A DNA stretch of 64,000 bases, from assembly GCF_028641065.1 (NCBI RefSeq), contig NC_073386.1:22506001-22570000 (forward strand), read 5' to 3'. A program made the translations under genes and the position numbers. This document shows positions 4,340-63,165 of this stretch, one piece after another. How positions within the stretch are numbered: position 1 is the stretch's first letter; the number at the start of each line of letters is the position of its first letter. The stretch comes from Leucoraja erinacea (Eukaryota). The notes under the pieces were generated by a model. It ran no database searches, was not told the DNA's origin, and worked only from the letters and a program-made list of their open reading frames with translations.

Positions 4340-4600
4340 GCAGGGTGGAACTGCAGACGCTGGTTTACACCGATGATGGACACAAAATGTTGGAGTAACT
4401 CAGCTGGTCACGCAGCATCTCTGGGGAGAAGGAATGGGTCAGTCTGAAGAAGGGTCTCGACCCGAAACGTGCAAGGGAATACGCAGACGAGGTTTCTGTT
4501 TGTGAAGGATCCCGACGCGAAAAGTCGTCAGTCCATTTCCCTCCGCAGATAGTCTGACCTGCTGACATCCGGCGAGAGACACAAAATGCTGGAGCTCCGA
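4340..4600. mobile_element. Penelope-derived pLTR cluster (inverted pieces) with hammerhead-like core at 4444-4471
   Basis: Antisense pLTR arm followed by CTGAAGA-AGGGTCTCGACCC-GAAAC-GTG and a second degenerate copy near 4501. Confidence 0.6.
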
Positions 4601-4689
4601 ATTCTTAAAGCAGATTTTTTTTTTTTTTGCATGCGTTTTATTATGTTCTTATTAATCATTCGCCTTTCTATTTGGTGTGCGAAAATAGG

Positions 4690-5300
4690 AGCAAAGAGGT
4701 CCTTCTGCAGTAGTACAGGGCCCCAGTGAGACCACACCTGGAGGATCGTGTACAATTTTGGTCTCCAAATTTGAGGAAGGACATTCTAGCCAAAGATACT
4801 AGAGGAGCATCTTTGATTCAAGCTACGGAGGGAATGCAGCGTAGGGTCACTATGTTAATTCCCGGGATGGCGGGACTGTCATATGTTGCAAGAATGGAGC
4901 GACTGGGCTTGTATACACTGGAATTTAGAAGGATGAGAAGGGGTCATTGAAACATATAAGGTTATTAAGGGACTGGACATGATAGAGGAAGGAAACATGT
5001 TCCGGATGTTGGGGGAGTCTAGAACCAGGGGCACAGTTTAATAATAAGGGGTAGGTAGGCCATTTAGAACAGAGATGAGGAAAATCTATTTCACCCAGAG
5101 AGTTGTGAATCTGTGGAATTCTCTGCCTCGGAAGGCAGTGGAGGCCAATTCTCTAGATGCTTTCAAGAGAGTTAGATAGAGCTCTTAAAGATAGTGGAGT
5201 CGAGGGATATGGGGAGCCATGATTGTGGATGATCAGCCATGATCACAGTGAATGGCAGTGCTGGCTGGAAGGGCCGAATGGCCTAATCCTGCACCTAATC
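4690..5300 (+). mobile_element. CR1/HER1-type LINE 3' end
   Basis: [19 protein letters not shown]...RLGLYTLEFRRMR plus the conserved 3' tail. Confidence 0.85.
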
Positions 5301-5524
5301 ATTATATTGCATACATTCAATTTCGACCTGTACCACGGGAAAGGAACAACCAGGCGGACACTAGGATGTTCTTAGAACTACCTTCATAAAAAGTGCAACA
5401 TCCCCAACGACTCGGAAGGTACGTGACTTCAACGTGATGAAGGGCATGGGAACCTGGAGTCCGCGCTTAGAGAGGAAACGAGTCCTGATTAAACGGAAGA
5501 AAGAGTAGGCTGCCTGCAAGCCTA

Positions 5525-5745
5525 ACCTTGCTGTCTGTGGAGTTGACATGTTCTCCCTGTGATTGTGTGGGTATCCTCTGGGTGTTCTGGGTGTCCTCCC
5601 ACGTCCAAACGACGTGCAGGTTTTAGGTTAATTGGCCACTGTAGGGAGAGAAAGTGGGATACCAGAGATGTAGTGTGAAAGGTGAGCGATGATTGGCATA
5701 GATTGGGTGGGACGAAGGGCCTGTTTTCATGCTGTAGCTTTCAAT
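5525..5745 (+). mobile_element. HE1-like (V-SINE) fragment
   Basis: gctgtctgtggagttgacatgttctccctgtg...tcctcccac core shared with the other SINE copies in the window. Confidence 0.6.
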
Positions 5746-7424
5746 TACCTTTAAAGTTTCAGGTGCTAGAAATCCAAAACAAAAACAACCACAGAATCAC
5801 TTAGCAAGGAAAGCAATGTCAGCGGGGACAAAAATAGACAACATTTTAGGTCAAAGAACCCTCAGATATTGCTTGATATGTGTACTTCCAGCATTTATTA
5901 TTTTTGTATTATCTTTAATTTGCTAACATAATATGATATCAAGAAAAGGCAGAGAGTGCTGGAGTAGCTCAACGGGTTGGACAGTATAACATGGACAAGT
6001 GACGTTTCGGATCGGGATCCTTCTTTAGACTGAATAGTCCTCAGTCGAAAAGTCCTGAGTCTATTTTGGTAAACCAGCACCTGCAGTTTCTCGTGTCTGT
6101 ATTGTAATATCTAGTAATGTTTTATAACTGCCAATAAGTTAAAGAAAATATACCAATATTGTTAGATCAAGTCAAACGTGGTATGTCCTGAAATGATTTT
6201 TTTAACTTGAGGCAATAGGCAGCATATTGTAATTGGTCGTTTGTTGAGAATGTTTAATGTAACTAAATGCTCAGATATGCATCACAGAAATGGGTTTTAG
6301 GCAAAATGTATTTACGCAATATCATTATTTTGACAAAACCAATTGTAATGATGAACACCCTTTTCCCCTTTTAAGATAATCCAAATTTGATCAACAGTAT
6401 TACTCTTTACTAAAGCAGTTTCCCTCCCATCATATTAAATTCTGGGAATATGTTTGGATAATTTCTGATATTAGCAGCATATTTATGAACATTCGCAAAT
6501 ATATTGATTTGTGTACTTTATTTCCAAAGGATGGTAGCTATTTGAAGCTGTACAGTAATTGGATCAGTAATCGTTACAAAAATAACTTGCCAATAAGAAA
6601 CAAATGAAGAAAAAAAATCTAAAATCTGCACATCTTTGAAATCTCTCCCGAATATTGTTTATCCTGTAGAAGAGATAATTTGGAGGTTGGAAATGTCGTT
6701 CATTCATGAGTGCTTCGTTTCAATTTTTAAGGGCCAGCATGCAAAAGATTTTTATCCAATGTTTATGGCCAAACCAAATCTTTCAGAAACTACCATAAGG
6801 TAAAAAGTAGGAATGTATATCTTTGAACTTTGGTATTTGGTGCATAAAGAAATGCATGAATTATATTGTCTGAGGAGGGGCCAAACCAAAGCATTGCCTA
6901 TCCATTGCCTCCACAGATGCTGCCTGTCCCGCTAAGTTACCTCAGCATATTGTTTTGTTCAAGATTCAAGACAGAGAAACATTCTCTGTTTCTTTTTTCA
7001 CAGGTGATGTTTAACCTGCTGAACCTTCCATTTTCTCATTGAAATTCAGATTTTAAGCATTTGCAATTTTCTTTTGGCTTTTGTTTAAAATATTTGGTCC
7101 CTCATCAGCCATGGCTGGCATACCTATTGCATTTGAGTGGAATTGCTAATTTATGTAAAAATGTTTTCTACTTTTACTGTCTTTAATTTAAAAATGTCAA
7201 ATGTGATTTTCATTTTTATTATTACTTTAATTATTCTGAATTGTGTGGTCACTGTGGAGGTGGACAAGGTGCATTAGGACGTGAACGCAAGGTGTGTGCT
7301 GAATACTGCACAATCTGTTCTCTTTTGCCAACTTAATTTATATGGTTTTCTCTTGGTACTAATGTGTGAACTATCAAAAGTAGAGTGCATTGATTTGTGC
7401 AATTTCTTCTTGTTTAGGGCAAAA

Positions 7425-7511
7425 ATGTCTACTACTAATTATGCTGTGCTCAATACTGGACAGAAGATGCCTCTCATTGGGCTGGGGACATGGAAGAGTG
7501 CGCCTGGTGAG
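7425..7511 (+). CDS. AKR1A1: AKR1A1 coding exon 1 ([29 protein letters not shown])
   Basis: Acceptor tgtttag at 7417, ATG at 7425, donor GAG|gtaatc. Confidence 0.93.
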
Positions 7512-10500
7512 GTAATCCATCTGGCAAAATATGATCAACTTTATCTTTGAGAACCATCAATTGAATTTGGAGTGTAATGTTGTGTAGCCATCCTATTATA
7601 GTTTATTTTCCTCTCTGCTTTTTTCTAATTTTATTGAATGTACAGGTATATATCATGTTAGCCTTCAGGGTGAATATTGGCAGACGCCTCAGTTGTGTAA
7701 CAGCTTTGACTGAACTGTACCCTCGGCTGAGATGGACAGAAGCATACTTCCAGCAAATCTGTTTCTGATGAATTGAAATGTTCTTTTCAAAAACGTGGCC
7801 ATAGGTTTAGAGTGTTTCAAAGGATTTTCCTAGTTTATTATACTCTCCTTCAGTGAACTTCCTTTTGGATGTCCTTGTCCACAGATTGTTGTAGCTTGAG
7901 GATTCGGAATCATCATGGATCTTCAATCCCAACCATTTTGAAAGACAGAAATATTAATGTAATCTCAAGTTATAAAATAGAGTTTTAAGTTCATATGCAT
8001 TGATCTACAGGCCATTCCCAGGAAATGTTTATAGTCGGATGTAAGTCAATTTTGTCTACGTTTTAAAAAAATACACAAAAGTCACTTAGTACAATGTAAT
8101 TAATTACATCCAAAGCACATAAGAATGAAAATAAATAACAATAACTATAGGTGGAGAGAGAGGAGGCAAGTGCTATTATTCATAGGAACAAACTAATGTA
8201 TGTATTTGGGATTTATGAATTTAATATTATATAGGGGCTTGATCATATATAGCGGGGTCCATGAGCCATGTGTTCATAATGTGGGTGGGAATAAGCAGTA
8301 AATTCAACAAAATTTGCACATTTACCAATTAACAGAAACATAATGAGAATGTGCTTTCATTGTCTTTGGTATTCATACAAAAATTAACAGGAAGCTGCTC
8401 ATTCTTTTATCTTCGCAATCCATCCTTGTCTTTTTATCCTCTGTGGACATCATCTAATTGTCACAGGATGGATTTCATTATTGACTTGCCATGAAGTGAA
8501 TGTTTATAGTCTGAAGAACAAAGCAGGTCTTCCTGATATATTTAAGTCTCCTAAAAAATAAAACAGTTGTTTATTTGATACATCAAAATGACCATTCTTA
8601 TTTGTCATGTGATAAACTAGGAATATTAAGTGTGAAAGGTTATCCCACTGTACAGGACTTTTATGGTTTGTTTCCTACAAAGCCAATACCAAAACTTGTA
8701 ATGTTGTCATTTTTTCTTCCTTTCCTAAATTTATTGGAAGGTAGTCATCAGTAGGTATTATGAACACTCTTCTATATCACTGCTTTTATAATACCACAGA
8801 ATGTTAGAAAAGCCAGAGAATGTTGGAAATGTCAGAAAGCTGGCTGGCAAAGTACCAAAAAGCTAACTGGCAAAATAACATACTGTTGAAAACAGGAAAC
8901 TGGCAAGCTTCTGTTTTCCTTGTTTTTGCCGTTTGCTGGTGTTTGCACTTTTTATATCTGCAGCTGATCCTTAAAAAAAACTTGCTAATTAAATGGTATC
9001 ATTGAGTGCAAAATGTCCCGTTTCCTCTCTCCTGCCTTGTTAACATTTTACCTTTCAAGAATGCTTGCAGATCAAAGAGTAAGCCCAAAATGCTTCGCTA
9101 ATCTACAAAACGCCAATAATTTGATTGTCAATTTTCCACATGTCATCCCTGACATTTTTCAAATCTTGCTAAAATGCTAAAAAAAAGAATTTTGATCTAA
9201 TATCCAATTTAAACTTGCTAAAGCTAAAAAAAATTTGTCTAATCCAGCCAAAACTTGCAATGTTGTCAACCTTAAATTTTGCATTGATTCTGTTTTTAAA
9301 GAAAAAATGTATGCTTGAGTGCTGAAATTAACATTGGCTACGTGGCATGGATATTAATCTGTGGTAAACAGTTCTGTTCTCCAGTTTCTTTACTTTGTCT
9401 CTCATTACAACCCACATAAATCTTATTTGGCATTCATTCTGTATTACAACTGTGCACTATTCAAGAGGGATGGCACCCTTAAGGATTTGGGAGTTTCGTT
9501 GTGCAACCAAAATGACAAGATAAAGCTTTGCTGTGAGGGAGAAATTATTTTCTTTTGAATAGCAGCATAAATAACATTGATAAATCAACAAACTGTGCCT
9601 CTTAAGGCCCTGTCCCACTTTCCCGAGCTACTCACAAATTCTCCCGAGTTTTCCCCTTGATTCAAACTCGGAGATGCCAGCCGTAGGTTCTCCGGGCTAT
9701 ATTTTTTACTCGTGGACATTTTTCAACATGCTGAAAAAACGTCCCGACTTACCTGATGCCCCAAGTACCTACGGCTGGCATTACGATCCGCTACGAAATA
9801 TCTACGGACTCGCTACGGACATTCTCCGAGTTTGAATCAAGGGGGAAACTCGGGAGAATACGTGAGTAACTCAGGAAAGTGGACAGGGCCTTTAATGTCC
9901 TGTACGCTCTGCCTCTGATAGACAGCAAGATGACCTTGCATTAGAAAACTAAAACTTTTTTTTGAAAAAATGCTTAATGGTAAATATTCTTTTAGGACCC
10001 ATCAGTATACATACTTTATAAATAAATCAGCTGTGAAGAGAGATTCAATGTCAGCTAATGCTAATCATCCTGGAAAGTTTTCTCAACCTTTGTTCATCAA
10101 TCACCTTTCACCGCCTCAAAAAAAAACTCAAATCAAATTAGTAAGACACGACTTGCTGTGTACGAAGTCATGCTGACTGTCCTTAACCCATTGTCTTCCA
10201 AATGGGAGTAAACCCTATCCCGAAGAATCCTCCATAACTTTCCAACTGCTGACGTGAGGCTCACCGTCCTATAATTTTCTGGATTTGACTTTGAACATTC
10301 AGTCCCTAAATGATTTCTTGTTCTCTGAATTTACTAGAATAGTAGATTTCTTTTGCCCAGAATTGTACATTAGTACTTCTTTGCAAAGCTGTGCATCAGT
10401 AGGGTCATGTTTAACAGCTACAAATTGTAGCTACGAACATTACCAATGGATAGGAATTCTGAAACCTTTACTTTGTCCTGCTATATACTTTTGAGATAAC

Positions 10501-13500
10501 AGATTGAAGTATTGCCAGGCTGTTATTATGTATTGAATTTACTCACTAAGGTGTAAAAATTGCTGTGAATTACATATAGCTTCTTATATCATCTTTGCTC
10601 GGTATGCTCTATCACTCTGCCAAGAAATATTGCATTATGGGGTGGTTGAGATTAACAATGTTTGAAATAGCAATTCATCCTTAATATTTCTGCAGAAAAT
10701 AAGCTTTAACTGTCAGTAGTGATTACATTTGCTCTTTTTGCCAAGGTAAAAACAGCTGTTGAGAATGCTTTAAAGATTGGTTATCGTCATGTGGACTGTG
10801 CTGCAGTGTACAATAATGAGGCTGAAATAGGAGACCTTTTTAAAGAAATAATTGGTGTTGACAAGGTATGATCTAAAAATTGTTGCATGGATAAGAATCA
10901 GATATGTGTTTGTTTGGAAGTATCTCATAAAATGAAATGAAATATGGTGGGCCATCTTCAAATGACTGGACTATATATGTCGGTTTTCTGCATGTTTTTG
11001 ATCCTTTTCAGTTTAATCAAAAATTATTAAACTTGTTTAAAGGTAATCTCAGAATATTTTACTGGTAAAATATTTTTACCAAATAGGAGATCAGTGGGCA
11101 AAATTAGGGCACATGTAGCCCTCACTCAGAGGACATCAGGAAAGGCATGGGAGTATAGATAAGTCTTTAGTCTTGACTTAAAAGAGTCAATGGAGGGGGC
11201 AGTTCTGATGGGAATGGGGATGCTGTTCCACAGTCTAGGGGCTGCAACCGCAAAGGCGCAGTCGCCCCTGAGCTTATGCCTAGACCGTGGGATATTCAGC
11301 AACCCCAAGTCGGCCGATCTGAGGGGCCTGGAGGTGGAGTGGTGGGTGAGAAGACTTTTTATGTAGGTGGGGGCAAGCCCATTGAGGGCTTTGTAGACAT
11401 GGAGGAGAATCTTGAAGTTTATATGGAACCGCACAGGGAGCCAGTAGAGAGAGGCCAGGATCGGGGTGATGTGGTCCCTTTTTCTGGTGCCCGTCGGGAG
11501 TCTTGCTGCGGCGTTTTGGACCAGTTGCAGGCGGGACAGGGAAGATTGGCTGATGCCAGTGTAAAGGGAGTTGCAGTAATCTAGGCGGGCGGAGATGAAT
11601 GTGTGGATGATCTTTTCCAGGTCATCAAACTGGAGGAATTTTTTTATTTTAGCTATCGTCCGAAGCTGAAAGAAGCTAGCTTTTACCACAGCATTGACTT
11701 GTTTGTTAAATTTCAGTGCCGAGTCAAATATCACGCCAAAGTTTTTGTGACGTGAGGTTTGAGTAGTAGGGTAAGGCTTCCAAGGCTGTCTGCTATCATT
11801 TTGATTGAGTCCGAGGGGCCGAGAAGGATGACCTCAGACTTACTCTCGTTTAGTTGGAGGAAGTTCTGGCCCATCCAACACTTTATATCCTCGAGGCAGT
11901 GGGTAAAGTTAAACAGATTTGATTGGTTTTTGGGCTTCAGGGGGAGATAGAGTTGGGTATCGTCTCAGGAGCACTAGAAGGAAATGCCGTGCCTTTCAAT
12001 GACTTGGCCCAAGGGGAGCATATACAGGGAGAAGAGAATGGGGCCAAGGATGGACCTTGTGGAACCCCACAGCAGAGATTAGCTGGGGAGGAGAATGAGT
12101 TGCTATGTTGTCTGCAGGACTGCAGGAAAGGGGTACTGATTGGGGATGATCAGCCATGATCACATTGAATGGCGGTGTTGGCTCAAAGGGCCGAATGGCC
12201 TACTCCTGCACCTATTGTCTATAAATAAATGCAGCTTTTGATAAGTGTAAATTTGACTGCTGCATTGAAAAGTTTACCGACTGCAGGACAATGAATGATG
12301 AATTCAGGAATTCATAGCCACAGATGGATGTGGAGGCCAAGTCAATGGATATTTTTGCGGCAGAGATTAACAGATTCTTGATTAGTAAGGATATCGGGGA
12401 TTATGGGGTGAGGGCAGGAGAATGGGGTTGAGAGGGAAAGATACATTTGAATGGCGGGGTTGACCTGATTGGCCCAATGGCCTAATTCTGCTCCTAGAAC
12501 TTATGAACGTATGATTGATCATACTGCTGGAGAATGCCATGTAAACCTAATTTTTCTGTCTGCTGGCCAACATCCTGAAGTTTTTTAACTTTTATAATAA
12601 TCATGCAGCATAATATTGATTAACCGTTCTACTTGGTTCATGTGATCAGTTTGTTGTGCTGTTGGATTACCCTCAATAATGAAATTCATTGTGTCATTTG
12701 TGTTAACATTCCAAAATAACTTGTCCCATGTTAACTATTGTTTTCATGTTTACTGGTAAAAATCATACCGCACCAATAAATCAAAAATATTTTTTAAAAA
12801 TTGGATGGCAGTGATTCAGATTTGGAAATTAAAATTTGAATGATTGGACTTTTTGACACCTAGCATTCAGCAATTGGGTAACAGAGTTGATTGAACGTCC
12901 AAGCTAACTAACAGATTTAACTTCTGTATCATATTGTTTCTCTTGCAGATGGTAAAACGTGAAGAACTTTTTGTAACCTCCAAGTTGTGGAATACCAAGC
13001 ATCATCCTGAAGATGTGGAACCTGCCTGTCGTAAATCTCTGGAAGACCTGAAGCTTACTTATCTGGATTTGTACCTCATTCACTGGCCTTATGCCTTTAA
13101 GTAAAATATAATTTATATCTATTTTTCTTGTGTGGTTTGGATGGTTATTTATGACCTTGCAATAACGTGCTTTTAGTTTTGTAAATGGACTGCATATGTA
13201 TTTAAAAAATACCCATTGTAGCAGGTTCCTTGCCTGTTAAAAGTCTTGCAGGGAATTATATCACAAAATTGGATTTGCATTCATTGATATCCGCAGCAAT
13301 GTGAGTTTGTAAACAGTTTATATAAATATAATAGTTAGTTATATATATAACTTGTATAGGTTATATAACATAATAGTTATAAGATGCACATTTTCTATTC
13401 ATATGTATCTATGTTGTATTATTGATGTTTTCAATTATCAATTTTGTGTGGTTTGCAGAAAAGGTGACAGCTGCTTTCCAAAGAATCCTGATGGCACAAT

Positions 13501-20650: not shown

Positions 20651-21546
20651 ATATATAACTTCAAAATATGTATTTTCTAGATTTGAAGAATTATTTTTTG
20701 TCAATAATAGAATAATTACTCTGGGTCATGTAAGACATTTGTGTACATGAACCAACTTTAAACATACAAAATTTGCTTGAAAATGGTCATCTAATCAAGA
20801 AAACATTTTCATAAGCTATTGGCTCAATTCTGATTTAGGAGAAAGTTAATTCAGCTGATTGGTCTCTTGATTCCTGATATGAATAAATTGAAAGTAATAT
20901 TTGCATGTAAAACAGTAAACATGCTTCAGTCGGAAATTTATATGAACTCTCCTTCATCTGAGAATTTAATACTTTACTAATCATCCCACCAGGGATGGGG
21001 AACTCTGAAAATTGTGCTCAATGAAAAAATATCACTATATCTAAAATTGATAAGATGAATTAAAAAAGACTAATGAAATACAAGCATAAATGTACTAATT
21101 AATTCAAATGTGCAGGTTTCTGAATTAATCAGAAAATAATGTCATGCTTATTACTGCAATCCAATTACAGTATAAATAGAAAATGAAACCCTCTTATATT
21201 CAGATCATAAATGAATTAGTATCTTGTGGCAATGTTACACTTTTTACAAAATATTTTGATGTCTTCAGCTTTAAATACAAGATAAGTTTATAAATAAATG
21301 TATATTTTATTTACTACGCAATCATAATGGCATTCAACCATCAGAAATGCAGAGTTCAGGTGCTGCATGTTTAATGCCTACTTCAGTTCAGACTATTATG
21401 AATCTGGTTTTATGGGAGAAGACAGCAATTTTTAGGCACAGCAAAACCACTTTCTAGCCAACAAAGTGCTTTGAGCTGGAATCTCAATTCAGGATATTCA
21501 GTACATAATTTGTGCACCAATTTCCACAAACACTATGCAAATTATC

Positions 21547-22062
21547 GAAAGTGGACAAAATGCTGGAGAAACTCAGCAGGTGAGGCAGCGTCTATGGAGC
21601 GAAGGAAATAGGCAATGTTTCAGGTCAAGACCCTTCTTCAGACTGATGTGAGGTGTGGGTGGGGGGGCGGGAAGAGGAAATGAAGAGGCGGAGATAGTGG
21701 GCTAAGGGGAGGAGAAAGCAGAGACTACCAGAAATTAGAGGTCAATGTTCATACCGCTGGGATGTAAACTGCCCAAGTGAAATATGAGGTGCTGCTCCTC
21801 CATTTTACAGTGGGCCCCACTCTGGCCATGGAGAAGGCCCAGGACAGAAAGTTCGGATTCGGAATGGGAGGGGGAGTTGAAGTGCTGAGCCACCGGGAGG
21901 TCCGGTAGGTTATTGCGAACCGAGCGGAGGTGTTGGGCGAAGCGATCGCCAAGCCTACGGTGAGGTTGGAGGAGGTGCAGGTGAACCTCTGCCGCACCTG
22001 GAAAGAATGCTTACGTCCTTGAATGGAGGGGGGAGGGTAAAGCGACAAGTGTAGCATTTCAG
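21547..22062 (-). mobile_element. Penelope-like element 3' fragment (GIY-YIG endonuclease C-terminus plus pLTR)
   Basis: Minus frames give FQVRQRFTCTSSNL and LGDRFAQHLRSVRNN...PVAQHFNSPSH...EQHLIF.LGSL.P.GMN; hammerhead-like core at 21614-21641; 11-bp TSD tgcaaattatc (21536-21546, 22063-22073). Confidence 0.85.
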
Positions 22063-25881: not shown

Positions 25882-26672
25882 GAACATTGGCCGTTTGCTC
25901 ACTGCATTTCATCAACAGTAAGGCATTATTTGTGTTTTTTCTTGATTCCTTTGGCATCTAAAAAGGTTCAGAAGTGATAAATCTGGCTGTAATTTTTTTT
26001 AAATCGCCCATGGTTCTCATGGGTTTTTAAACTGTGGCCCCTGGTTAAAAAAATTTACAGCCAGATTGATCACTTCTGAGATTTTTTAGATACCAAAGGA
26101 ATCAAGAAAAAACACAAATAATGCCTTCCTTGATGAAATGCAGTGAGCAAACGTGATAATTCCCAATATTTTCAATGTTTACCAAGCACTTTAGCTGCTG
26201 TAGTCCCTTCAGTTCTCGGTTCTCTATACCTTCATTTCGCTTCACATTTGGAATTCTAAAGTTGGGTACATGTCCCTCACACTTACCCCGACTTCCACAA
26301 TTGTTTTCAGTGCAAAAATTCAACATTTTGGCGGTTTTTAACAGGTAGGAAAGTACGCGTTTCTAGCATTAATAACATATACCTGAAGTGACGGATGTCT
26401 TCCAGTTGGATTTAGCGGCTCCGTGCGTCGAGCCCTATGACCCAGTGACCTTTCGTGCAACCTCCCTATAGCTAGAATGTCCATCCTCAAATTTGGAGAC
26501 CAAAACTGCATATAATACTCCAGGTGTGGTCTCACTAGGGCCCTGTACAACTGTAGAAGGACCTCTTTGCTGCTATACTCAACTTATCTTGTTATGAAAG
26601 CCAACATGTCTTTCGCTTTCTTCACTGCCTGCTGTACCTGCATGCTTACTTTCAGTGAATGATAAACAGGAC

Positions 26673-26703
<31 letters not shown>

Positions 26704-51674: not shown

Positions 51675-54600
51675 CTTTAAGAAAGAAAATTAGAACAAAC
51701 ATTGTCCTTGTGTATAACTCATGTCATGAATGATAGGAGATGCACTGATTATTTCCAAATTAGAAATTATGATTAGGTGCTAAGGTACACAAAAAAGCTG
51801 GAGAAACTCAACGGGTGCAGCAGCATCTATGGAGCGAAGGAAAGTTTGGGGAGTCTGCATCCTGGGGGCATGAACATCGAATTCTCCCAATTTTGTTAGT
51901 CCTTGCTGTCTCCTCTCCTTCCTCAGTCCCCCCGCTGTCTCCTCCCATCCCCCAGCCTTCGGGCTCCTCCTTTTTCCTTTCTTGTCCCCGCCCACCCCCG
52001 TCCCCGATCAGTCTGAAGAAGGGGTTCGGCCCGAAACGTTGCCTATTTCCTTCGCTCCATAGATGCTGCTGCACCCGCTGAGTTTCTCCAGCTTTTTTGT
52101 GTACCTTCGATTCTCCAGCATCTGCAGTTCCTTCTTAAACACATGATTAGGTGCTAGATGGATTTATGATCCATCATTTAAATGGCAATAAGCTGACAGA
52201 TGAATGTCCTGTTTATGTTATCTTTATAAAGCAAAAGATTAATACTTAATATCTACATTAGCATTACGAGCCTCGTTTTAATATAGTAATACAATAGAAT
52301 TTTTCTGCACGTTACTGACTGGAGGTCAAGTAATAACCATTGTACATTATCTGCATAAGAACAGTAACCTTTTAAATGCTCTATTGCTGGGGAGGAGTAG
52401 TGAAGGGAGATGTTGCTCTGCATAATGCTTACTTGTTCAGAATATCTTGCCAGCTCTTCATCCCTCCTTCCATCTGCAATACTGACTAGCACTGATGCAC
52501 CTTTCATCTGAAAAATCTACACAAGAAAACATATTTAAGAGGGTTGCATTTCAAACAAAGTATCCCTTATTTTTTCCATTGTCACTTACAGTATTCTTCT
52601 GAACAAGATCATCCAGAACACTCGGGCATTCTCCCCTTGCTAAAGCAGCCAAGGCATCCTGCGTGAAAGAAAGAGTTAGGTTTTTTTAGATTTTGAATGG
52701 AAGAAATTCCCCTTATGTTGTTAATGGTATTACTTTGGCCATCTATTATAAGCCCTTGGTGTTCTGATCCATTCCAGGCAAAGGAATTCAATATTGGACC
52801 ACACACCAATTATTGCTGTTAAATTGTAAACCTAAGATGAATTTCTTCAGTGTTAGATTGAAGCTGGACTGATTCCCCCAAACTTGTATAATTGGCACTC
52901 ATTTCAAGTTGATTGCAAGAGGAAAATATAGGTCTATTGTACTAATCCTATAATATCCCTCGCTTTGAGAATGAAGTTGGTTCCAGGGGGTCAAACATGA
53001 ATACGGCTAGGAAATGTAACACCGAATACAAGCTTGTGTATGTCACCAAATATATACATATTCATACCTGAGTGGGAGCTCCTTGATACAGTGGTAGTTG
53101 ATAAATTGCTGTGTGACAGTAACCTTTAGAAAACACCTGGAAGGCAGTCCAGACCTGGTCCTTAATTTCATACTTAAGTGCCTCAGCCTCCACTGGAGAT
53201 GGGGAGACAGCAACTTCATAAAGATGAACAATCAAGGCGAGGTACTTGTTGTAAACTCGTCTTGGAAATGACTGCAAATATAAGACATTTTATTGGAAAA
53301 CGTTTGGCAGCATTGAGAAGCATCCTAGAACCAATTGTTTCTGAAATCCGCCCTTGAAATCAATTCCTGCCTTCCTTCAACCTGCACAATCAAATGTCTG
53401 GCAGTGAACGTCCAGGTCAGAAGTGGGGATGTTTTGATTGTGCAATGTCCAATACCATTTGTAGCTCCTCAGCCAGGTGAATATCTTGCCATCTTTGACA
53501 TTCATTAACATTGCTCTCAGCCAGATCTCACCCTCTCTATCCTGCAAGTCACCATTGACCAAGAACCAGCTATACAGCAAAGCCGGAACGAGGTATCCCT
53601 ATGTTAAATCCACCACCCTAAGCATATATTCCCTCGACCAGCAATGCAAACTATCCACAGTGAGTTGATACACTGCAGTTATGCTCCGAGGCTGCTCCAA
53701 TACCACCTCCCAAATACACGTGTTTCTTAGTGGGAGGGATCAACGGCAACAAGCACTTAGGAACAACACCACTTGTAAGTTCCCAAGAACACTCAAATAC
53801 CTTGAAAAGGGGGCTCACCACCTTCTCAAAAATGTTTAAGAAAGAACTGCAGATGCTGGAAAAATCGAAGGTAGGCAAAAATGCTGGAGAAACTCAGCGG
53901 GTGAGGCGGCATCTATGGAGCGAAGGAATAGGTGACGTTTCGGGTCGAGATCCTACTTCAGACTGATGTGGGGGGGGGGGAGGGGGGAAGAAGAAAGGAA
54001 GAGGCAGAGACAGTAGGCTGTGGGAGAGCTGGGGAGGGGAGGGGAAGGAGGAAGAAAGCAAGGACTACCTGAAATTGGAGAAGTCAATGTTCATACTGCT
54101 GGGGTGTAATCTGCCCAAGCGAAATATGAGGTGCTGTTCTAATTTGCGATGGGACTCACTCTGGCCATGGCGGAGGCCCAGGACATAGAGTTCGGATTTG
54201 GAGTGAGAGAGGGAGGTAGAGTCACTGATGGAGGCCCGCGGGGAGCGGCGTCCGGTCGGCGGGCGAAGCGTCGGAAGATCCAGTCAACGATGGCCGGTGA
54301 GGCGGCGATAGTTGGAGGTAACGGTGAGGGTCGGCGGTCTCAGTGAGGTTCGGCGTCATCAGTGGGTAGGTGAAGGTTGGCGGCCACGTGGAGGTCAGCG
54401 ATGCCAGCGTCTTTGGTGGTCCGGGCCTGAGACCGGTCCGGGAGGCGGTGATTGTTGGTGCTGCTCCTCATGGCAAAGATGGCGTCGCGGGTCTGGGCCT
54501 CGTGGTGTTCGGGCAGGTGGCGCGGGCCAGTGTGGGGGCCCGGGGCCTGCAGGCAGTCAAGTCGAGGCGTGCCGGTGGCAGGAGCAGTCTGGAGGCGGGC

Positions 54601-57600
54601 GAGTTTAAGGTCTGTGGTGGAGTTGAAGTGGGCAAGGAATCGTTTGTTGAAGGCGTGGATCTGCCGTTGGATGAAGTAGAGTTGGGGTCCGTTGCAGGTC
54701 TGGGTGAGTGAGGCCCGAAGATTCGGGAGTCAAAGCGAGGTCCTGTTGGTGCCGGCGCATCACAGCCAGAGTAGATCGCAGGGCACGGAAGAAGAACTGC
54801 CGTGTAGGGCAGCAGATAGCCTGTCGGTATCTATAGTCCGGGTTGGGTCCAAACTGGGAGGTAGGGAACTGGAGCTGGAAACTATGAGGTACAAGATGGA
54901 GGCACAGGCAAGTCCCGAGATAGCAAACGTGGCTGTGGTTACGAGTTTCTCCAGCATTTTGTCTACCTTCTCAAGAATGATTAGATACAGGAAATAAACG
55001 CTGCAACATGAATAAATGAAAAAAACGTACTGACCCTGGACCAAAACTACACTCTAACAAGACACCTTTCTTTGCTCTTTAACCTCATCAAATGTTTCCA
55101 CCACACAACATGTATTTTACAATATAAAGACATTAAAAAATATATATTGATGGTGATTTCTAGATAACATTCAATCCTTAACCCACAGTGTTTGTATCAG
55201 CACTTCGTCCTCACACCAGAGATTACCACTGACTCCTATGTAGTTTTACACCGTTAAACATGATCAGCCCATGATATCTACTTTTTAGTTTCTGTACTGT
55301 AATACCAGCTCAAAGGAGAGTAAAGTGTCCCAGTTAGATCTTCATAATCCAGGTTCTTGTTAAATATATAACTATATTGATGATCCTCAAGTTAACTTTA
55401 TGGCTGGGCTGCTAATGTATTAATAAGAGTTGCTGAGGCAACCCAATGAGACTCCGGTAATAGTTCTAGGTTGAAAAATAGTCTACAATGCAAGCACTAA
55501 AACCTTAATTTATATTACCTTAAAATTATCCAACCACATTGGGCATTTTTGCAGACTGTTGAAATCTATGTTTTCTATGAAAACTGGGTGATCATATTTA
55601 GCCCAAGGGCTACCATAATAGTAAGCGCCTGGTGGATTGAATGAAGCAAGAGCTAACGTAAAGTTACTCCAAGGTACATTTCTGGCTCTGTCCACAGATA
55701 CCTGCAAAGTAAATAAGGAAAAAATCACTATGCAAGAAAATAAATAAAGATAGATTTCAAAGTTAAAGTTCAAAATCACCAGTACAATGGACCAATTTAA
55801 TTTTTCTGTCAGTGTGAACTCTGCATATTTTCTCATGGCATGCATTCTCCGAATGGGGCTTGAAGGTTCATCAGCCACAGTAAATTAACCTTTATGTGTA
55901 GATGAGGGTAGAATCTGTTGGTGGGAGGAGTAAAGGGGGAATTATATGTGAATGCAGAGACAATAGAACAGGATTATCATAGGATTAATGTAAATAGATG
56001 CTTGATACCTAGCACAAACTCTGGGCCAATAGGTTTATTTCCATACTGAAGGACTAAATAATCAAGTTGAAGATTAAAGCATTTTGTTTCCCTTTGAACA
56101 AAATAAATGGAGCCATGAAAAGGAGGCAACATGAGATGCAGTGTTTAGGTGATGAGATATTAGAGTATGCTACAATGACCATACTATTCAGGCCTAATCA
56201 AATTAAATAGATTAGCACAGGACCATGTGTGACAGTGCAATAAACACAACTATCGTGCCAGAATAGGAGACCAAAAGAGAGCGTAAATATCTCAAGCACA
56301 GTGTTACTGCTTGGGACACTTGTGAGTAAGTAGATCCCAAGAACCCCAATGGTACAAGCACATGACCTGGCAAATCTACCCCAGTCCTTATGGAAAGTCA
56401 GATATACTTAAACATTGGACCATCAAATGCTTGGCATCAGATAGAGCAGCCTCGTGGCAGTCCAATTTTTATATATTTTTCTCCAAAACTCCTATAATGG
56501 TTTTACTGCTTTCAATTGATAGATCAATAACTGTTAATCTTACCATACCTTGATGCCAAATGTGGTGAGGTATCTGCTTATATAGGTCAAGTTGAAAGTC
56601 ACTGGTTTATCATCCACCAGTTTTGAAAGTTTCATGTATATCCAGTTTTCAAGTTCTGTATCTGTGCTAAAGTCTTGTGCTTTGGTGCCAGCTATCATTG
56701 GAACAATTTCTCGAACTGAAACAAAAGATCTTTGAAAAAGACCCAACAAGTGTGTCACAAAGAAAAATCTTTTGAGGGTTAATCAATCTAATTCAATACT
56801 TTGAGAATAGACCATTCACGAAACAATCTTTTCAGGGGCAAAGGAAGTGGGAGTTTGAAACAGTGATAAATAAATAAGTGATTAGTATGGGTGTCAGGGG
56901 TTATGGGGAGAAGGCAGGAGAATGAGGTTAGGAGGGAGAGATAGATCAGCCATGATTGAATGGCCTAATTCTGCCCTCATCACTTATGACATGATAACTT
57001 AAAATGTACATCAATGATCAACATAGAAATCTAGATTTAAAAATATGATTAAAAAAATCTGAAATCCGAGCTGATTAATACTTGGATATGGATCTTCTAT
57101 CAGAACTGAAAACTGAAAGATATATTTTCCCAACCAAACTTTATAACTTCTCACGACAACGTAATGATCGCTGCAGTCACAAGCCGTAGGATTTTTGAAA
57201 TCAATATTACTTAATTGCAAAGGGCAAATAATATAATATACTGTTACTGAAGCCAGAAGTGAGCTTGGCTGAGTTAGAAATGTTAGAAAGGCAACAGAAA
57301 AATAATTATATCTGTTATCAAGAATATAAATTATCCTTGGTCACATTGTTATTTGTACCAGCTGTGTAACTTTTCAAACACATTGAAGTGCATGGAACAT
57401 ATTTTTAAATTAGACCACAACAATGAATGTTCCAAATTGTATAGTTTAAGTGCATATGAGAAAATGTCTATTCCATCATTTTTTTTTCAAATTAGACAAT
57501 CACAGTGCCCTCCATAATGTTTGGAACAAAGTACTCCACAATTTGAGATTTGTAATAGAAAAATCACATGTGATTAAAGTACACATTGTCAGATTTTAAT

Positions 57601-57663
57601 AAAGGCATTTCTATACATTTGGGTTTCACCATGTAGAAATTACAGCTGTGTTTATACATAGTC

Positions 57664-57700
<37 letters not shown>

Positions 57701-60700
57701 ATTTCAGCTCACCATAATGTTTGGGACACATGGCTTTTCAGATGTTTGTAATTGCTCAGGTATGTTTAAATGCTTCCTTAATGCAGGTATAAGAGAACTC
57801 TCAGCAACTAGTCTTCCTATCACCTTTGGAAACTTTTATTGCTGTTTATCAACGTGAGGACGAAAGTTGAGCCAATGAAAGTCAAAGAAGCCATTATGAG
57901 ACTGAGAAACAATAAAACTGTTAGAGATATCAGCCAAACCTTAGGCTGACCAAAATCAACTGTTTGGAACACCATTAAGAAGAAAGAAAGCACTGGTGAG
58001 TTTACTAATGCAAAGGGACCTGCAGGCCAAGGAAGACCTCCACAGCTGATGACAGAATTCTCTCTATAATTAAAAAAAATCCCCAAACTGACTGACAGAT
58101 CTGAAACATTCTTCAGGAGTCAGGTGTGGATTTGCCAATGACCACTGTGCCTGGGATCATTTGACAATGATCCCGGGCATTCAGGTCTGGAGATCCCAGA
58201 GGTCTACAAGAAGTCCAGATACGACCTTGGTATGGCCACCAAAAAGGTGCTCCAAGCTGGAGGATGAGACGGATATTCGGCAACTGTGGGAGGGCTTGAA
58301 TGCAATCACCTCCTACAAGGCGAAATCAGGAGGCAGCTCAAATGTGAGCAAAGCATCACTCCCTGAGGTTGTAAACACTGCCCAGTCCATCATCGGCTCT
58401 GACCTCCCTTCCATCGAGGGGATCTATCGCAGTCGCTGCCTCAAAAAGGCTGCCAGCAACATCAAGGACGCACAACATCTTGGCCACACACTCATCTCTC
58501 CATTGCCATCAGGTAGAAGATACAGGAGCCTGAAATTTGCAACATCCAGGTTCAGGAACAGCTTCTTCTCCAAAGCCATTAGACTATTAAACACAACTTC
58601 AAACAAATTCTGAACTATAACAGCCTATTGCACTTTATCTGTTTATTTATGTGTGTGTATATATATATATATATATTGTATGGTATGGTATATGGTATAT
58701 GGGCACACTGATCTGATCTGTATTTATGCCTACAATATTCTGCTGTGCTGCAGCAAGCAAGAATTTTATTGTCCTATCTGGGACACATGACAATAAACTC
58801 TCTTGACTTGACAGAAGACTTGATGATCAGTAATACAGAGGCTACACTGCAAGATGCAAACCACTGGTTAGTTGCTAAAATAGGATGGCCAGGTTACAGT
58901 TTGCCAAGAAGTACTTAAGAGCAACCACAGTTCTGGAAAAAGGTCTTGTGGACATGAGACGCAGATTAACATATATCAGAGTGATTGCAAGAGCGAAGGA
59001 ATTCCCCTAGATCCAAAGCATCTGTGAAACACGGTGGTGTGGATGTTATGGCCTGGGCATGTATGGCTGCTGAAGGTACTGGCTCATTTTTCTTCATTGA
59101 TGATACAAAGACAATGCTGATGGTAGTAGCATTAAAAAAATGGAAATTTGAAGTAAACCAATTGAGTTTTTATATACTGAAGGGAAGGGGACTAGCCCCC
59201 ATGTATAAACTAAAGATGGCTGCAATACAGGCCTGGCAGAGCATCACCAGAGAAGACACCCCCAGCAACTGCGCAGACTTCAAGCAGTCATTGCATTACC
59301 ACAACAAGTGGTCACAGTGGAAACCAAAACATATAAAATTTGCCTTTATTAAAATCTGACAATGTGCACTTTAACCACGTGTGATTTTTATTCTCAAATT
59401 GTGGAGTACAGAGGTAAATAAATAAATGATGAGTCTTTGTCCCAAACATTATGGAGGGCACTGTATGTATTTCATATGGCAAACAAACAATAACATGGGC
59501 GTCACTATACTTAGAGAAATAATAAGATAAATCTCTGAAGATTAACCTGAAAATCTGCTTTATTGATGCTAATGTCATCTATCAGAAAATGTGCTGACAT
59601 GTTTAGTAAGAAGGTTTTCTTTTTAATACATCAGTTAATAACTTTCAGTCAACTCACCTGTTAACCATGGCATGGTAAATATCATTTTCACCTGTGGTTG
59701 GACTGGCCTTGTCCGAATAGTATACTTTATCTTCATAGTTTGGCCTCGGCTGAAAAAGGCCAAGTTTAGTCCATTCAATTTTGGGCACCTTGTCCGTCTC
59801 AATATGTTGGAGGTTCTTGTCAGCTTGTATCTTCACTAATCTCACCAGTAATGTAGCACATGGAATAAATCTACAAAGGAAGGAAATATGGTTGGATGTG
59901 ACCTTCTAGAGGGGACAAGTTGGAATAATATGATGCTGATGGTGATACAGTAGCTTTCATGCATGTGCTACATTCTGGAACTAAAATCTATCCAATTACT
60001 TATGCTCCCATGTGCTGTTTCCACAGAAGAATAAATACTTTCAAACCCAATTCATTTCTGGAGGTTACAGTTGATCCCTCTTCCAACTCCTTTTCAAATT
60101 CCTTAAATGACATTTCTAAATCCCCATATTTATTCTCTGAAGAAGGGTCTCAACCCAAAACGTCACCCATTCCTTCTCTCCAGAGATGCTGTCTGTCCCG
60201 CTGAGTTATTCCAGCTTTTTGTGTCTATCTTTGGTTTAAACCAGCATCTGCAGTTTGTTCCAACACTTTATTCCCTGATCATACCTTTCTGCCACTGGAA
60301 GAGTTTTATTTACTCTTTAAAAATCACTATGAAAATGCCAGTTTAAAATCTCTTAACGCCTCCTCTCTGAGGAAAATAACTTCTCAAGCCTACTGCATAA
60401 TCCATATTGACATCTTATATTACATAATCAAAGACAATTCACATCCTGGTCAGCCTTTCTCCCTTTCTCCCATTGGGCAGAAAGTACAAATGCTTGAAAA
60501 CACATCTTACCACTTCAAGAACATCGTCTTCTTGCTGTCATCCCACTCCTGAACGAATTTCTCACATGCTAAGTATGTACAGTAAACCCTTGGTTTAGGC
60601 CGAGTGGACAGAGCAACGGGAGATGGAGGAGGCGGTGAAGGTCAAGTGGACAAAGCAAAGGAAGAAGTGGCAGCTGGTGAGCGGGGAGTAGCCCTACGGT

Positions 60701-62004
60701 GACCGAGCGCATCCTGTCCGTGGTGGCGGCCTGAACAAAACGCTGTCTCCAGGGGCCTGTAAATATGTTTTTTTTTTAATGAGCCTATCATTCTTTTTAA
60801 AATACACTGTCCGAAAGTAACTAATTTCTTTGTATATATTCACCACCCCTCTCTGTTTTTGTATTAAACTGTCCCAATATACAAATCTGGTAATTAATTA
60901 TTTTAATCCTTTTAATTAGTTTGTTAACTGCTTCAAAAAAAATCCATGTAAGCTTGAATTTCTGTCATTCTATTCCACAGAGAGTTATAAAGTTTAAGGT
61001 AACATTCACATTCTGCTGTTCCCAAGATATGCCATTCAACATTTCCTCATATCCAATGTTCTAACATATTCTCACCTTTCTTGAACCCACATGGTTCATC
61101 AGAAGTATTGACATTGATGGCTATCTGCAACTCTTTTACATTCATAGATAGACATGAAATGCTGGAGTAACACAGCAGGAGAGGCTTTGGTTTAAACCAG
61201 AATTTGCAGTTCCTTCCTACGCATTTATTTTATATGCATGGTTTCTTTCAGCATACATCTTGCTGACGATCCCAGTACTTAGTTTAGTTTAGAGATACGG
61301 TGCAGAAACAGGTCCTTTGGCCCACCGAATCCACGTTGACCAGCGATCCCAACGCATTAACACCATTCTCCACACACTAGGGACAAGTTTACATACACCA
61401 AGCCAAATAACCTACTGACCTGTACGTCTTTGGAGTGCAGGAGGAAACCGAAGATCTCGGAGAAAACCCATGCGCGGTCACGGGCAGATCGTACAAACTC
61501 CGTACAGACAGCACCCGTAGTCGGGATCGAACCCGGGTCTCTGGCGCAGCGCCACCATGCCGCCCATAAAGTTTATAGTTTCCCATTTCTATTTTTCAGT
61601 CATCTCTCCAGCTGTGCCATTAATTTGGGGGGTTCTATCATTGGCCTTAATCAAAGTATGCAGCCCTTACCGTGGTCATCCTCCTACACCTACCAACAGA
61701 AAGCTTTCAGCTTTGCACACTTGAAGTGCTCATGTAAATTGATAGGATTCAAAATAATCGAGACACGACACTTGTTCATTTTTAGCAGTTTTCATTCCCA
61801 TAGGATTCCTGTAATGTGCTTCCATGTTCCAAATCTGCAAACCCATGATTATATTTCTTTCTTACTTATATGTTTCAACATTTTGAAGCTTTGAAATGAA
61901 ACTTACCTTCCTCCGACTGTCACAGCATTGACTGATAATGGCTTATCTGGGTCAGGCCCATCATAGTACAACCGTAGTTGGTGAGCGCCTTCGTTCAGTG
62001 AGAT
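51534..62004 (-). CDS. Uncharacterised protein, 3' part of a spliced gene (8 in-frame exons, 391 codons; 5' exons outside the window; terminal exon uncertain)
   Basis: complement(join(61907-62004,59658-59870,56549-56729,55519-55701,53068-53271,52590-52658,52433-52516,51534-51674)); every junction is GT-AG with a pyrimidine tract and matching phase, with no stops. Confidence 0.85.
51783..52142 (+). mobile_element. Penelope insertion with inverted 5' pLTR piece and hammerhead core (52013-52040)
   Basis: 14-bp TSD atgattaggtgcta (51769-51782, 52143-52156); 51783-51843 is the near-perfect reverse complement of 52046-52106; GSLHPGGMNIEFS GIY-YIG C-terminus. Confidence 0.85.
52433..52516 (-). CDS. 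Unknown gene exon G (IFQMKGASVLVSIADGRRDEELARYSEQ)
   Basis: cttgtgtag| acceptor (an in-frame alternative AG lies 9 nt downstream), CAA|gtaagc donor, 84 nt. Confidence 0.8.
52590..52658 (-). CDS. Unknown gene exon F (DALAALARGECPSVLDDLVQKNT)
   Basis: tttctttcacgcag| acceptor, ACT|gtaagt donor, 69 nt. Confidence 0.8.
53068..53271 (-). CDS. Unknown gene exon E (SFPRRVYNKYLALIVHLYEV...WTAFQVFSKGYCHTAIYQLPLYQGAPTQ)
   Basis: ORF 53062-53277; tttgcag| acceptor, CAG|gtatga donor, 204 nt. Confidence 0.85.
53835..54964 (-). mobile_element. Internally deleted Penelope-like element
   Basis: pLTR with mutated hammerhead core (53934-53961); GIY-YIG C-terminus (~54070-54210) fused to a GC-rich 5' ORF region; inverted pLTR piece at ~54943-54970; 15-bp TSD accttctcaa(a/g)aatg (53820-53834, 54965-54979). 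Confidence 0.75.
55519..55701 (-). CDS. Unknown gene exon D (VSVDRARNVPWSNFTLALASFNPPGAYYYGSPWAKYD...WLDNFK)
   Basis: Within ORF 55510-55878; ttgcag| acceptor, AAG|gtaata donor, 183 nt. Confidence 0.85.
56549..56729 (-). CDS. Unknown gene exon C (SFVSVREIVPMIAG...LTYISRYLTTFGIK)
   Basis: Within ORF 56540-56758; tttttcaaag| acceptor, AAG|gtatgg donor, 181 nt. Confidence 0.85.
57503..59463 (+). mobile_element. Tc1-family transposon (same family as 35568-37208), degenerate, with nested LINE
   Basis: TIR cagtgccctccataatgttt ... aaacattatggagggcactg followed by TA; transposase remnants [14 protein letters not shown] and [20 protein letters not shown]. Confidence 0.85.
58150..58812 (+). mobile_element. 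Internally deleted Rex1-like LINE nested in Tc1
   Basis: ORF 58161-58613 joins RQLWEGLNAITSYK to VVNTAQSIIG...LPSGRRYRS...RFRNSFF.KAIRLLN; ttgacttgac tail. Confidence 0.8.
59658..59870 (-). CDS. Unknown gene exon B (FIPCATLLVRLVKIQ...LGLFQPRPNYEDKVYYSDKASPTTGENDIYHAMVNR)
   Basis: ORF 59654-59845; cctttgtag| acceptor, AG|gtgagt donor, 213 nt. Confidence 0.85.
60137..60266 (+). mobile_element. Short Penelope pLTR, hammerhead-like core 60137-60164 (G12A mutated)
   Basis: CTGAAGA-AGGGTCTCAACCC-AAAAC-GTC; tttattc(t/c)ctga repeated at both ends. Confidence 0.6.
61280..61565 (-). mobile_element. HE1-like tRNA-derived V-SINE, CpG-rich (relatively young)
   Basis: Reverse complement has a gggcggcatggtggcg head, B box GGTTCGATCC, the V-core ggtgctgtctgtacggagtttgtacg and a (ctaaa)n tail. 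Confidence 0.8.
61907..62004 (-). CDS. Unknown gene exon A (ISLNEGAHQLRLYYDGPDPDKPLSVNAVTVGGR)
   Basis: tttgtttgttag| acceptor, AG|gtaagt donor, 98 nt; phase 2 matches exon B. Confidence 0.85.
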
Positions 62005-62374
62005 CTAACAAACAAAGCACTATGTAACGTTTGGTAAATATAAGCTGGATTTCCAAACAAAGATATTAGTAAAAAGATGAAATAAAATATATGATCTGTG
62101 AGGTGACAAAAATGAAATATATAAATTAACCTTGGGAACTAATGCACGTATGTAGAGCAATGTTTGTTATTCTAAATTTCCTCCGTGTCAGTTTTCCATC
62201 TAACTCTGAAGAAAGAATGTCATTGTTCCATTGTGAGTGCTTATGACAATTAAACACTCTTGACCTTTTAATCTATCGAGGTCCTGTCTGACTGTTTCCT
62301 TTGTGAGATGACAGGAAAGGCAGAATTGCCTATTTAATTTAAATTGTATGAAAAGCACTTGAACACATATCTAC

Positions 62375-62962
62375 AATCTTTCACCACCTCAGGTAATTGA
62401 GGAAATTCAGAGTGTCTCTCAGGATCCTCCAGTGCTTCTACTCAGTGGCTGTGGAAAGCATCTTGTCCGGAAACATCACGATTTGGTTTGGGAACTGCTC
62501 TGCCCAGGACAAGAAGGCTCTGCAGAGAGTAGTGCGTTTGGCCGAACGCACTATGGGAACTACACTCGCCCCCCCTGCAGGAACTATACATCAGGAGGTG
62601 CAACTCCAGAGCCAACAAGATCATGGAAGACACCTTCCACCCCAGCAACGGATTGTTCCAGCTGCTACAGTCAGGCAAATGCCTCCGTTGCCATGCTATG
62701 AGAAGGAGTTTCTTCCCAGAGGCCATTAGGACTGTAAACTCCTATCTCTCCAGGGACTAACTTTGCTGTACCTTTTTAATGTTGTGTGGTGTCTTTTTAA
62801 AATAGCTGGGTTTTTTTCCTCCCACAAATACGTAATATGTGAATATGTGTTTCTGTTCCATTCTGTTTTGTAGTTTGTTTTTTTTTGCACAATCCGCGAG
62901 AATTGCCACTTTTCATTTCACTGCACATCTCGTATGTGTATGTGATGAATAAACTTGACTTG
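62375..62962 (+). mobile_element. Rex1-like LINE 3' end
   Basis: ORF 62397-62729 FYSVAVESILSGNITIWFGNCSAQDKKALQRVVR; aataaacttgactt tail. Confidence 0.8.
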
Positions 62963-62964
62963 TC

Positions 62965-63165
62965 TAGGAAGGAACTGCAGATACTGGATTAAACCTGAAG
63001 TTAGACAAAAAGCTGAAGTAGCTCAGCAGGACAGGCAGCATCTCTAGAGAAGAAATGGGTGACCTTTCGGGTCAAGAAAGGTCTCGACCCAAAACGTCAC
63101 ACATTCCATCTCTCCTGAGATGCTGCCTGTCTTGCCAAGTTACTCCAGCTTTTTGTGTCTATATA
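62965..63165. mobile_element. Foldback pair of Penelope pLTR arms
   Basis: agacaaaaagctgaagtagctcagcaggacaggcagcatctc mirrored by gagatgctgcctgtcttgccaagttactccagctttttgtgtct around truncated hammerhead halves (63061-63099). Confidence 0.6.

Follow-up and report, generated by a model that had tools for sequence, protein, structure and literature searches.

The question raised by a 64,000-nucleotide stretch of the skate Leucoraja erinacea genome (assembly GCF_028641065.1, contig NC_073386.1, positions 22,506,001 to 22,570,000 of the forward strand; hereafter the window, numbered from its first letter) is where its many copies of a hammerhead ribozyme motif come from, and whether they still cleave. 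An earlier reading of the letters alone (the original prediction) described them as a very high-copy, Penelope-derived population of self-cleaving motifs, mostly in introns of housekeeping genes. The repeats that carry the motif are very probably short retrotransposed ends of an endonuclease (EN)-bearing Penelope-like element (PLE), likely of the Neptune type and equipped with a minimal type I hammerhead (min-HHR); they appear to have been inserted with target-site duplications from RNA uncut at the hammerhead. Most are likely inactive, because they decay at the rates of neighbouring sequence.

The motif belongs to an abundant repeat family. A copy is present, on the predicted strand, at each of the 11 places that the original prediction listed, and a loose pattern gives four exact matches against a mean of 0.06 and a maximum of two in 100 shuffles, far above chance. 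A repeat profile built from nine window copies finds 28 matches at E<=1 (24 at E<1e-3; best score in 10 shuffles, 13.3 bits), covering 2,153 bp or 3.4% of the window, and places the hammerhead motif at the 5' end of a repeat of ~135 bp. Fifteen of the 28 bear the core, or one per 4.3 kb, which bears out the predicted density of about one per 5 kb; the degenerate copies expected near 6870, 49295 and 63061 are likewise recovered, near 6870, 49295 and 63072. No Rfam hammerhead family matches the window at its gathering score or at E<=10, and scans with a downstream pattern returned no further copies in metagenome contig and viral contig collections.

The Penelope origin claimed for the repeats is upheld by the sequence directly 5' of three copies. 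Using tblastn, the C-terminus of an EN was located immediately upstream of the copies at 21641, 52013 and 53961, as had been predicted (spans 21738-22027(-), 51846-51920(+) and 54068-54214(-)), and in all three a pyrimidine-rich pseudo-long terminal repeat (pLTR) lies between EN and hammerhead. The frame 21735-22010(-) has its closest matches in skate and ray proteins (60-73% identity), and its longer relatives contain a reverse transcriptase (RT) thumb, a cysteine linker and an EN region; RT and EN are both present in relatives P0003, P0006 and P0007. A CX2-5CXXC linker precedes the EN in the closest relatives P0001, P0003 and P0007, a region that the window fragments do not cover. Linkers of this type mark the Neptune and Nematis PLEs (PMC8557442; here and below, PMC8557442, PMC3846280, PMC2377424, PMC11167929, the PMC4209133 supplement and bioRxiv 10.64898/2026.07.22.740005 are cited for the parts consulted). 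PLE coding remains in the window comprise the C-terminal halves of EN and a separate, decayed RT-thumb piece. Judged from these similarities, the element is likely an EN-bearing PLE of the Neptune type.

Three further stretches touch on PLE coding sequence. Within one duplication-bounded insertion, ~720 bp of GC-rich sequence (54220-54940(-)) is joined to the EN C-terminus; Pfam and protein-atlas searches gave it no identity, and it is likely the N-terminus of a PLE open reading frame (ORF) with a large internal deletion. An older PLE relic at 30600-32000(-) holds the decayed RT-thumb piece (31825-31992) and an EN end (30735-30803) with other repeats between them; a pyrimidine-rich tract without a hammerhead match follows it, and by eye the similarity seems to stop where the solo copies begin. 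The gene model of a skate relative, P0004 (neuromedin-U receptor), finishes in PLE EN sequence, and these PLEs may thus leak into gene annotations.

The anatomy of the insertions also fits a PLE. Hallmarks described for EN-bearing PLEs are a C-terminal EN, a pLTR, an optional tail of 30-40 bp, an inverted 5'-truncated arm and target-site duplications (PMC8557442, PMC3846280); the tail, the inverted 5' arm and the duplication are all found here. When 20 spans were each scored against 200 random pairs, flanking duplications exceeded all random pairs in four. The first is a complete solo copy at 34156-34280(+), flanked by 14 exact bases, which begins 3 bases before C3 and has an intact core, a 4-bp stem II, helix I and the tail. 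The second, 51783-52142, is bracketed by 14 exact bases (51769-51782 and 52143-52156) and combines an inverted, tail-less arm (51783-51842(-), identical to the 52013 copy at 59 of 60 bases) with the last EN codons, pLTR, an intact core at 52013-52040 with a 3-bp stem II, and tail (51846-52142(+)). The third, 53835-54964(-), is a single insertion with a 15-bp duplication containing one mismatch; it spans a short inverted arm (54943-54964(+)), the GC-rich stretch, the EN C-terminus, pLTR, a hammerhead at 53934-53961 with A9U and a stem II mismatch, and tail. The fourth, 21542-22062(-), is a 5'-truncated PLE with an 11-bp exact duplication and a tail-less end, whose EN C-terminal half has lost its GIY-YIG segment and whose hammerhead (21614-21641) carries C11.1U and G16.2A. 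Two further spans show weak duplications: 11 bp, within chance, at 15470-15597, and 12 bp with one mismatch at 60136-60270, a score reached by 6 of 200 random pairs.

Copies stop at one of two places, near model position 100-104 or at 135-137. Loose 3' ends in RNA reads and DNA contigs from two species mark the same two places (52105-08 and 52141-42 on the 52013 copy), and a loose 5' end lies at 52010-11. The spacing of ~35 bp between the 3' ends is the PLE tail of 30-40 bp, whose counterpart in an anole PLE is a pair of internal RT start sites (PMC11167929). Head-to-head pairs occur at seven loci, in six of which one arm stops at model position 97-104 and the other at 124-137; DNA contigs from two species repeatedly show joints between opposite strands that are fixed at the 5' boundary. 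By analogy with the anole PLE, the element's protein would nick target DNA and begin reverse transcription internally, at one or the other 3' end (PMC11167929); RT would then run back through the uncut hammerhead and stop at the 5' boundary, likely where the transcript begins. Longer read-through RNA would be the source of insertions extending into the EN, and a working hammerhead would likely be confined to the source element, acting as a dimer or aided by the element's protein.

The 5' boundary, 1-3 bases before C3, is sharp and common to most copies: 12 core-bearing copies have no pLTR upstream, and nine of these begin within 3 bases of C3 and three inside the core. Read depth steps up at 52010 by ~70-fold in bulk RNA, ~10-fold in DNA contigs and ~5-fold in a single-cell run, ratios that are rough since the upstream pLTR is variable and under-captured, and flanks beyond 52010-11 are diverse (agreement 0.32-0.46). 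In the long copies the boundary lies within TCAGT, which resembles the initiator consensus. The Penelope element of Drosophila virilis has an initiator, an internal promoter and a start site in its pLTR (PMC2377424), and an initiator-like motif has been described in a rotifer pLTR (PMC8557442, PMC3846280). The boundary is thus likely run-off at the 5' end of the transcript, with the copies representing the first ~100-135 bases of the RNA; stalling of RT before a C-rich tract is an alternative cause. A more specific model, which we put forward tentatively and hold to be somewhat less probable than its negation, is that the boundary is the transcription start itself, at the A of TCAGT 3 bases before C3. 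Because RT starts internally ~100-135 bases from the 5' end, each promoter-born transcript would then yield a short run-off copy with an uncut hammerhead, and ORF-bearing copies would come only from read-through RNA. A splice junction at the boundary, considered on account of the pyrimidine tract and CAG upstream of it, is disfavoured: the AG is kept and the flanks beyond are diverse.

Two other features of the repeat deserve mention. At repeat positions ~45-62 (e.g. 52045-52066), every subfamily shows a pyrimidine tract followed by AG and then ATG, an arrangement resembling a splice acceptor; no GT-AG joint was found among the joints listed in the read and contig alignment to the 52013 copy. 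Behind the loose end at 52142 in bulk RNA, a related motif with a canonical CUGAUGA core follows the tail (agreement only 0.4), which suggests another subfamily or a tandem arrangement elsewhere in the genome.

The best-surviving alternative, though an improbable one, is that the ~135-bp solos form a separate non-autonomous family, SINE-like or a monomeric retrozyme, that is transcribed independently and mobilized in trans by PLE protein. In its favour, 12 of the 15 core-bearing copies lack upstream pLTR, the boundaries are sharp and common to copies, the complete solo at 34156-34280 has a duplication of its own, and PLE-derived non-autonomous retrozymes have been described (bioRxiv 10.64898/2026.07.22.740005). 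However, solos and EN-linked copies share subfamily letters, the 34159 copy being 90% identical to the 52013 copy, and 85-100% of aligned RNA reads continue into sequence unrelated to the repeat, which is how passengers of host transcripts would behave. Retrozymes are, moreover, defined as head-to-tail tandem units, whereas the skate copies are solos or head-to-head pairs with no tandem array in the window; among the rows listed in read and contig alignments, go-back joints are rare compared with opposite-strand joints.

As ends of a PLE, the copies would be expected to resemble the min-HHRs of other PLE pLTRs. The family majority sequence has the CUGANGA-H / GAAA-NN-UH core of the min-HHR with stem II closed by G10.1-C11.1, and the additional nucleotide separating position 9 from 10.1 and the palindromic 15.2/16.2 fit the published class (PMC4209133), in agreement with the type I hammerhead originally proposed. 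An ACGU palindrome (15.1-16.1) replaces helix III in 8 of the 11 listed copies. Most copies form a helix I of 2 bp, lengthened to 3 bp in the copy at 6001 and missing from that at 27642; 76% of helix I cells and 84% of those of stem II are paired, and the seven-pair structure as a whole is 84% paired in register, falling to 11-44% when slid. Frequent family variants lie outside the core and preserve pairing or H17 (11.4 A/G opposite U; 17 C/U; 1.1 A/G opposite U), and a one-sided U-A/U-G variant of stem II is common in reads and contigs. The covariation in stem II that the original prediction anticipated does not rise above chance in the 17 related window rows, where 189 of 500 shuffles reach the observed value; the only two-sided change in these rows is that of the 6001 copy (10.3-11.3, G-C to A-U).

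The uniformity implied by the original prediction did not survive, as 9 of the 11 listed copies are altered or incomplete. A core base is changed in four (G5A at 6001, C3U at 15472, A9U at 53934 and G12A at 60137), position 17 is G rather than NUH in the copy at 4444, stem II or the palindrome is changed in three (G16.2A at 21614 and 37937, G10.1A at 29325), and at 27642 the core is intact while helix I is missing its 5' strand; only the copies at 34159 and 52013 are complete. A descriptor modelled on the min-HHR of PMC4209133 passes 3 of the 15 core-bearing copies (34159, 52013 and 27669(-), the last with 0 bp in helix I) against a shuffle mean of 0.01. In folding models, which ignore core tertiary contacts, stem II, folded in 60-nt context, has a predicted probability of at most 0.31 for 10 of the 11 copies, and the dimer as intended would lie ~20-29 kcal/mol above the optimum; RNAalifold applied to the whole ~135-bp unit did not recover the hammerhead. 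The proposal that selection maintains the downstream pyrimidine tract as a 'lock' for the core strand was rejected (z-scores of -1.5 to +1.7 in 10 copies, no covariation), and the competing hairpin itself is not significant.

Decay was followed in four runs of RNA reads or DNA contigs aligned to a near-majority copy. G12>A reaches 16.5, 22.8, 15.1 and 12.2%, and CpG sites outside the core decay comparably (9-15% at the loop II CpG; 11-20% at the 15.2/16.2 CpG). Variants of U16.1 (2.4-4.9%) and A15.1 (0.8-2.4%) resemble flanking non-CpG sites. Only 1 of 28 profile matches starts at the cut site (4440(-)); inserted copies span it, and their templates were therefore mostly uncut. The claim of a very high-copy self-cleaving population is thus overstated: 2 of 11 copies are complete, G12, A15.1 and U16.1 decay at the rate of neighbouring non-core sites, and the cleavage ends proposed after GUH did not appear as a pile-up of read ends at the cut site in two RNA runs (oligo-dT and single-cell libraries), fragmented material in which such a test is insensitive. 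Strand bias in the single-cell run was left unused; it may reflect oligo-dT priming on A-rich antisense tracts.

That a substantial share of dispersed copies nevertheless acts as ribozymes on host pre-mRNA, for example through dimers within one intron, is very unlikely. Two copies are complete, the one at 34159 is in sense orientation within NASP intron 1, where a second sense-oriented copy (29325) precedes it by 4.8 kb, and the motif occurs in ~0.14% of bulk RNA reads (18,299 of 12,895,792). Against this stand the decay of the core, the missing pile-up, the predicted weakness of stem II and of the dimer, and a balanced orientation of intronic copies (four sense, four antisense; a small sample). 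Published min-HHR monomers, moreover, did not cleave and dimers did so weakly (PMC4209133), eight of nine Xenopus dimers are published as showing no cleavage, and the anole motif requires its protein (PMC11167929). Least credible of all is a chance likeness to a hammerhead in an ordinary repeat: the failure to match Rfam and the lack of significant covariation would allow it, but all core positions, the extra nucleotide, G10.1-C11.1 and the palindrome fit the consensus, pairing collapses out of register, and the motif sits where a PLE pLTR should carry it.

The interpretation of the copies as inactive PLE ends from uncut templates has findings against it as well. The window holds no intact ORF and no full pLTR-ORF-pLTR element, so that the source element itself is not seen, and the Neptune-type linker is found in relatives only; 16 of the 20 spans lack a duplication beyond chance. 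Among the 40 rows listed out of 48, A13, A14, A9, G8 and A6 show no variant at 2%, positions near the 5' end being under-reported. Of 127 non-CpG core cells in the window, 4 depart from the majority base, against 222 of 1420 cells elsewhere, which could mean selection on the core; the comparison is confounded, as the core itself served to choose the copies and 'elsewhere' also takes in differences between subfamilies. In the inversion at 4336-4470, the junction of the two pieces coincides exactly with the predicted cut site (model 31/32), as a cut template would give; it is the single hint of such a template. Constraint in the source elements followed by free decay after insertion fits all of these data. 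No high-frequency non-CpG core variant is among the rows listed for the four runs, which agrees with such constraint.

The relationship between PLE repeats and dispersed vertebrate min-HHRs has been in print since 2014, with ~4,000 dispersed copies in coelacanth and ~9,000 in Xenopus (PMC4209133). The skate family shares with this class the core, the extra nucleotide, G10.1-C11.1, the palindromic 15.2/16.2, the absence of helix III, a pyrimidine-rich 5' flank and a prevalence of dispersed singles from truncated PLEs. It differs in that stem II (4 bp) and helix I (2 bp) are both short, although a 2-bp helix I is also seen in motifs of Drosophila virilis, Culex and Oikopleura (PMC4209133 supplement), and Table S1 and Fig. 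S3 of that work, as consulted, include no cartilaginous fish. Its density may exceed that in coelacanth and Xenopus, with three descriptor-passing copies in 64 kb, though one window gives no genome count. PAc, the green anole's Poseidon PLE (Frangieh et al. 2024, PMC11167929), similarly carries its hammerhead close to the end of the pLTR, starts RT internally at two sites, inserts from uncut RNA and gives no RNA-seq ends at the cut site. PAc, however, appears to belong to a different clade, and its ORF begins within stem II, whereas no such ORF start is established in skate. Neptune and Nematis EN-bearing PLEs share the tail, inverted arm, duplications and pLTR (PMC8557442, PMC3846280); the skate has fragments only, and the frequent 5' truncation described for those elements contrasts with its one fixed stop at the 5' edge of the hammerhead. 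Non-LTR retrozymes are PLE-pLTR-related, have a type I hammerhead and are reported from one chondrichthyan genome (bioRxiv 10.64898/2026.07.22.740005), and are separated from the skate copies by their tandem organization. By its testable sequence features, the skate motif is assigned to the minimal hammerheads of EN-bearing PLEs. No paper on this family in cartilaginous fish was found, in a search that did not extend to the subscription literature or to Repbase and Dfam, which may catalogue it.

The remaining copies, located by profile search unless noted otherwise, vary widely in preservation. Near the start of the window are a core-less fragment (3178-3233(+)) and the head-to-head pieces of the inversion: 4336-4440(-) is the 3' part of the repeat (model 32-135), running from the predicted cut site to the tail end, and 4441-4470(+), supported by motif and profile, runs from the usual 5' boundary to U16.1, is not cleavable as it stands with G at position 17, and is followed by sequence unrelated to the repeat. 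A degenerate core-bearing copy at 4504-4565(+) (E 2e-4) had escaped the original list. Alignment additionally supports the G5A copy with 3-bp helix I at 5937-6031(-), which has a short inverted arm (6060-6090(+)), and decayed copies at 6868-6953(+) (G12A and A15.1G) and 49236-49314(-) (G12A, without the 5' core strand). Solos with tails, placed by exon mapping, lie at 15470-15597(+) (C3U; AKR1A1 intron, sense), 29322-29452(+) (G10.1A and C15.2U; NASP intron 1, sense), 37837-37966(-) (G16.2A; NASP intron, antisense) and 60136-60270(+) (G12A; CCDC17-like intron, antisense). The tail-less copy at 27567-27670(-), antisense in NASP intron 1 with core and stem II intact and no 5' helix I strand, faces an inverted arm with tail at 27669-27751(+) (model 56-137). 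A core-less fragment lies at 42505-42551(+), a head-to-head pair of core-less 3' pieces, one with and one without tail, at 61139-61226, and another pair at 62961-63164, composed of 62961-63077(-) with tail and 63072-63164(+), tail-less with G12A.

The host genes are AKR1A1 (coding exons 7425-20320(+)), NASP (27325-47399(+); one exon 97% identical to an Amblyraja protein) and a CCDC17-like gene running from at least 62067 to 51501(-) (one exon 100% identical to a Leucoraja protein), in whose introns the 51846-52142 and 53835-54964 insertions lie antisense and sense, respectively. AKR1A1 and NASP we take to be housekeeping-type genes. The predicted intronic setting holds for 8 of the 11 listed copies, which fall between coding exons (five in AKR1A1 and NASP, three in the CCDC17-like gene); the other three are not placed in a transcript, those at 4444 and 6001 lying upstream of the first AKR1A1 coding exon and that at 21614 1.3 kb past its stop codon. 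Matched skate models of the CCDC17-like gene have 260-490 aa, against 1,200-1,480 aa in many CCDC17 proteins from other animals. Among unrelated repeats, two copies that are ~80% alike (36213-37210 and 57498-59465) are likely relics of Tc1-type DNA transposons; frame 36572-37039 in the first matched helix-turn-helix (HTH) domains weakly, that of the Sleeping Beauty transposase among them at a score below cut-off. Further abundant repeats, with frames of RT-like or LINE type, lie at 693-1410, 4685-5299, 11126-11833, 16147-16872, 23430-26729 and 39452-40092, with a weak RVT_1 match at 1030-1407 and ALKBH8_N matches at 16150-16872 and 24884-25555.

These findings extend the known association of hammerheads with PLE pLTRs to skates, in a family that Rfam misses and whose density may be unusually high; no new ribozyme or host function is shown. 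Their use is mechanistic, for the PLE transposition cycle and the role of the hammerhead in it, as many fixed-end copies make models of transcription start and paired priming testable. If the start-site reading is true, promoter-born RNA would keep only a 3-base 5' strand for helix I, genomic copies alone would have sufficed to map a vertebrate PLE's promoter, its ribozyme and its two RT start sites, and it would be explained why PLE hammerheads litter genomes as solos.

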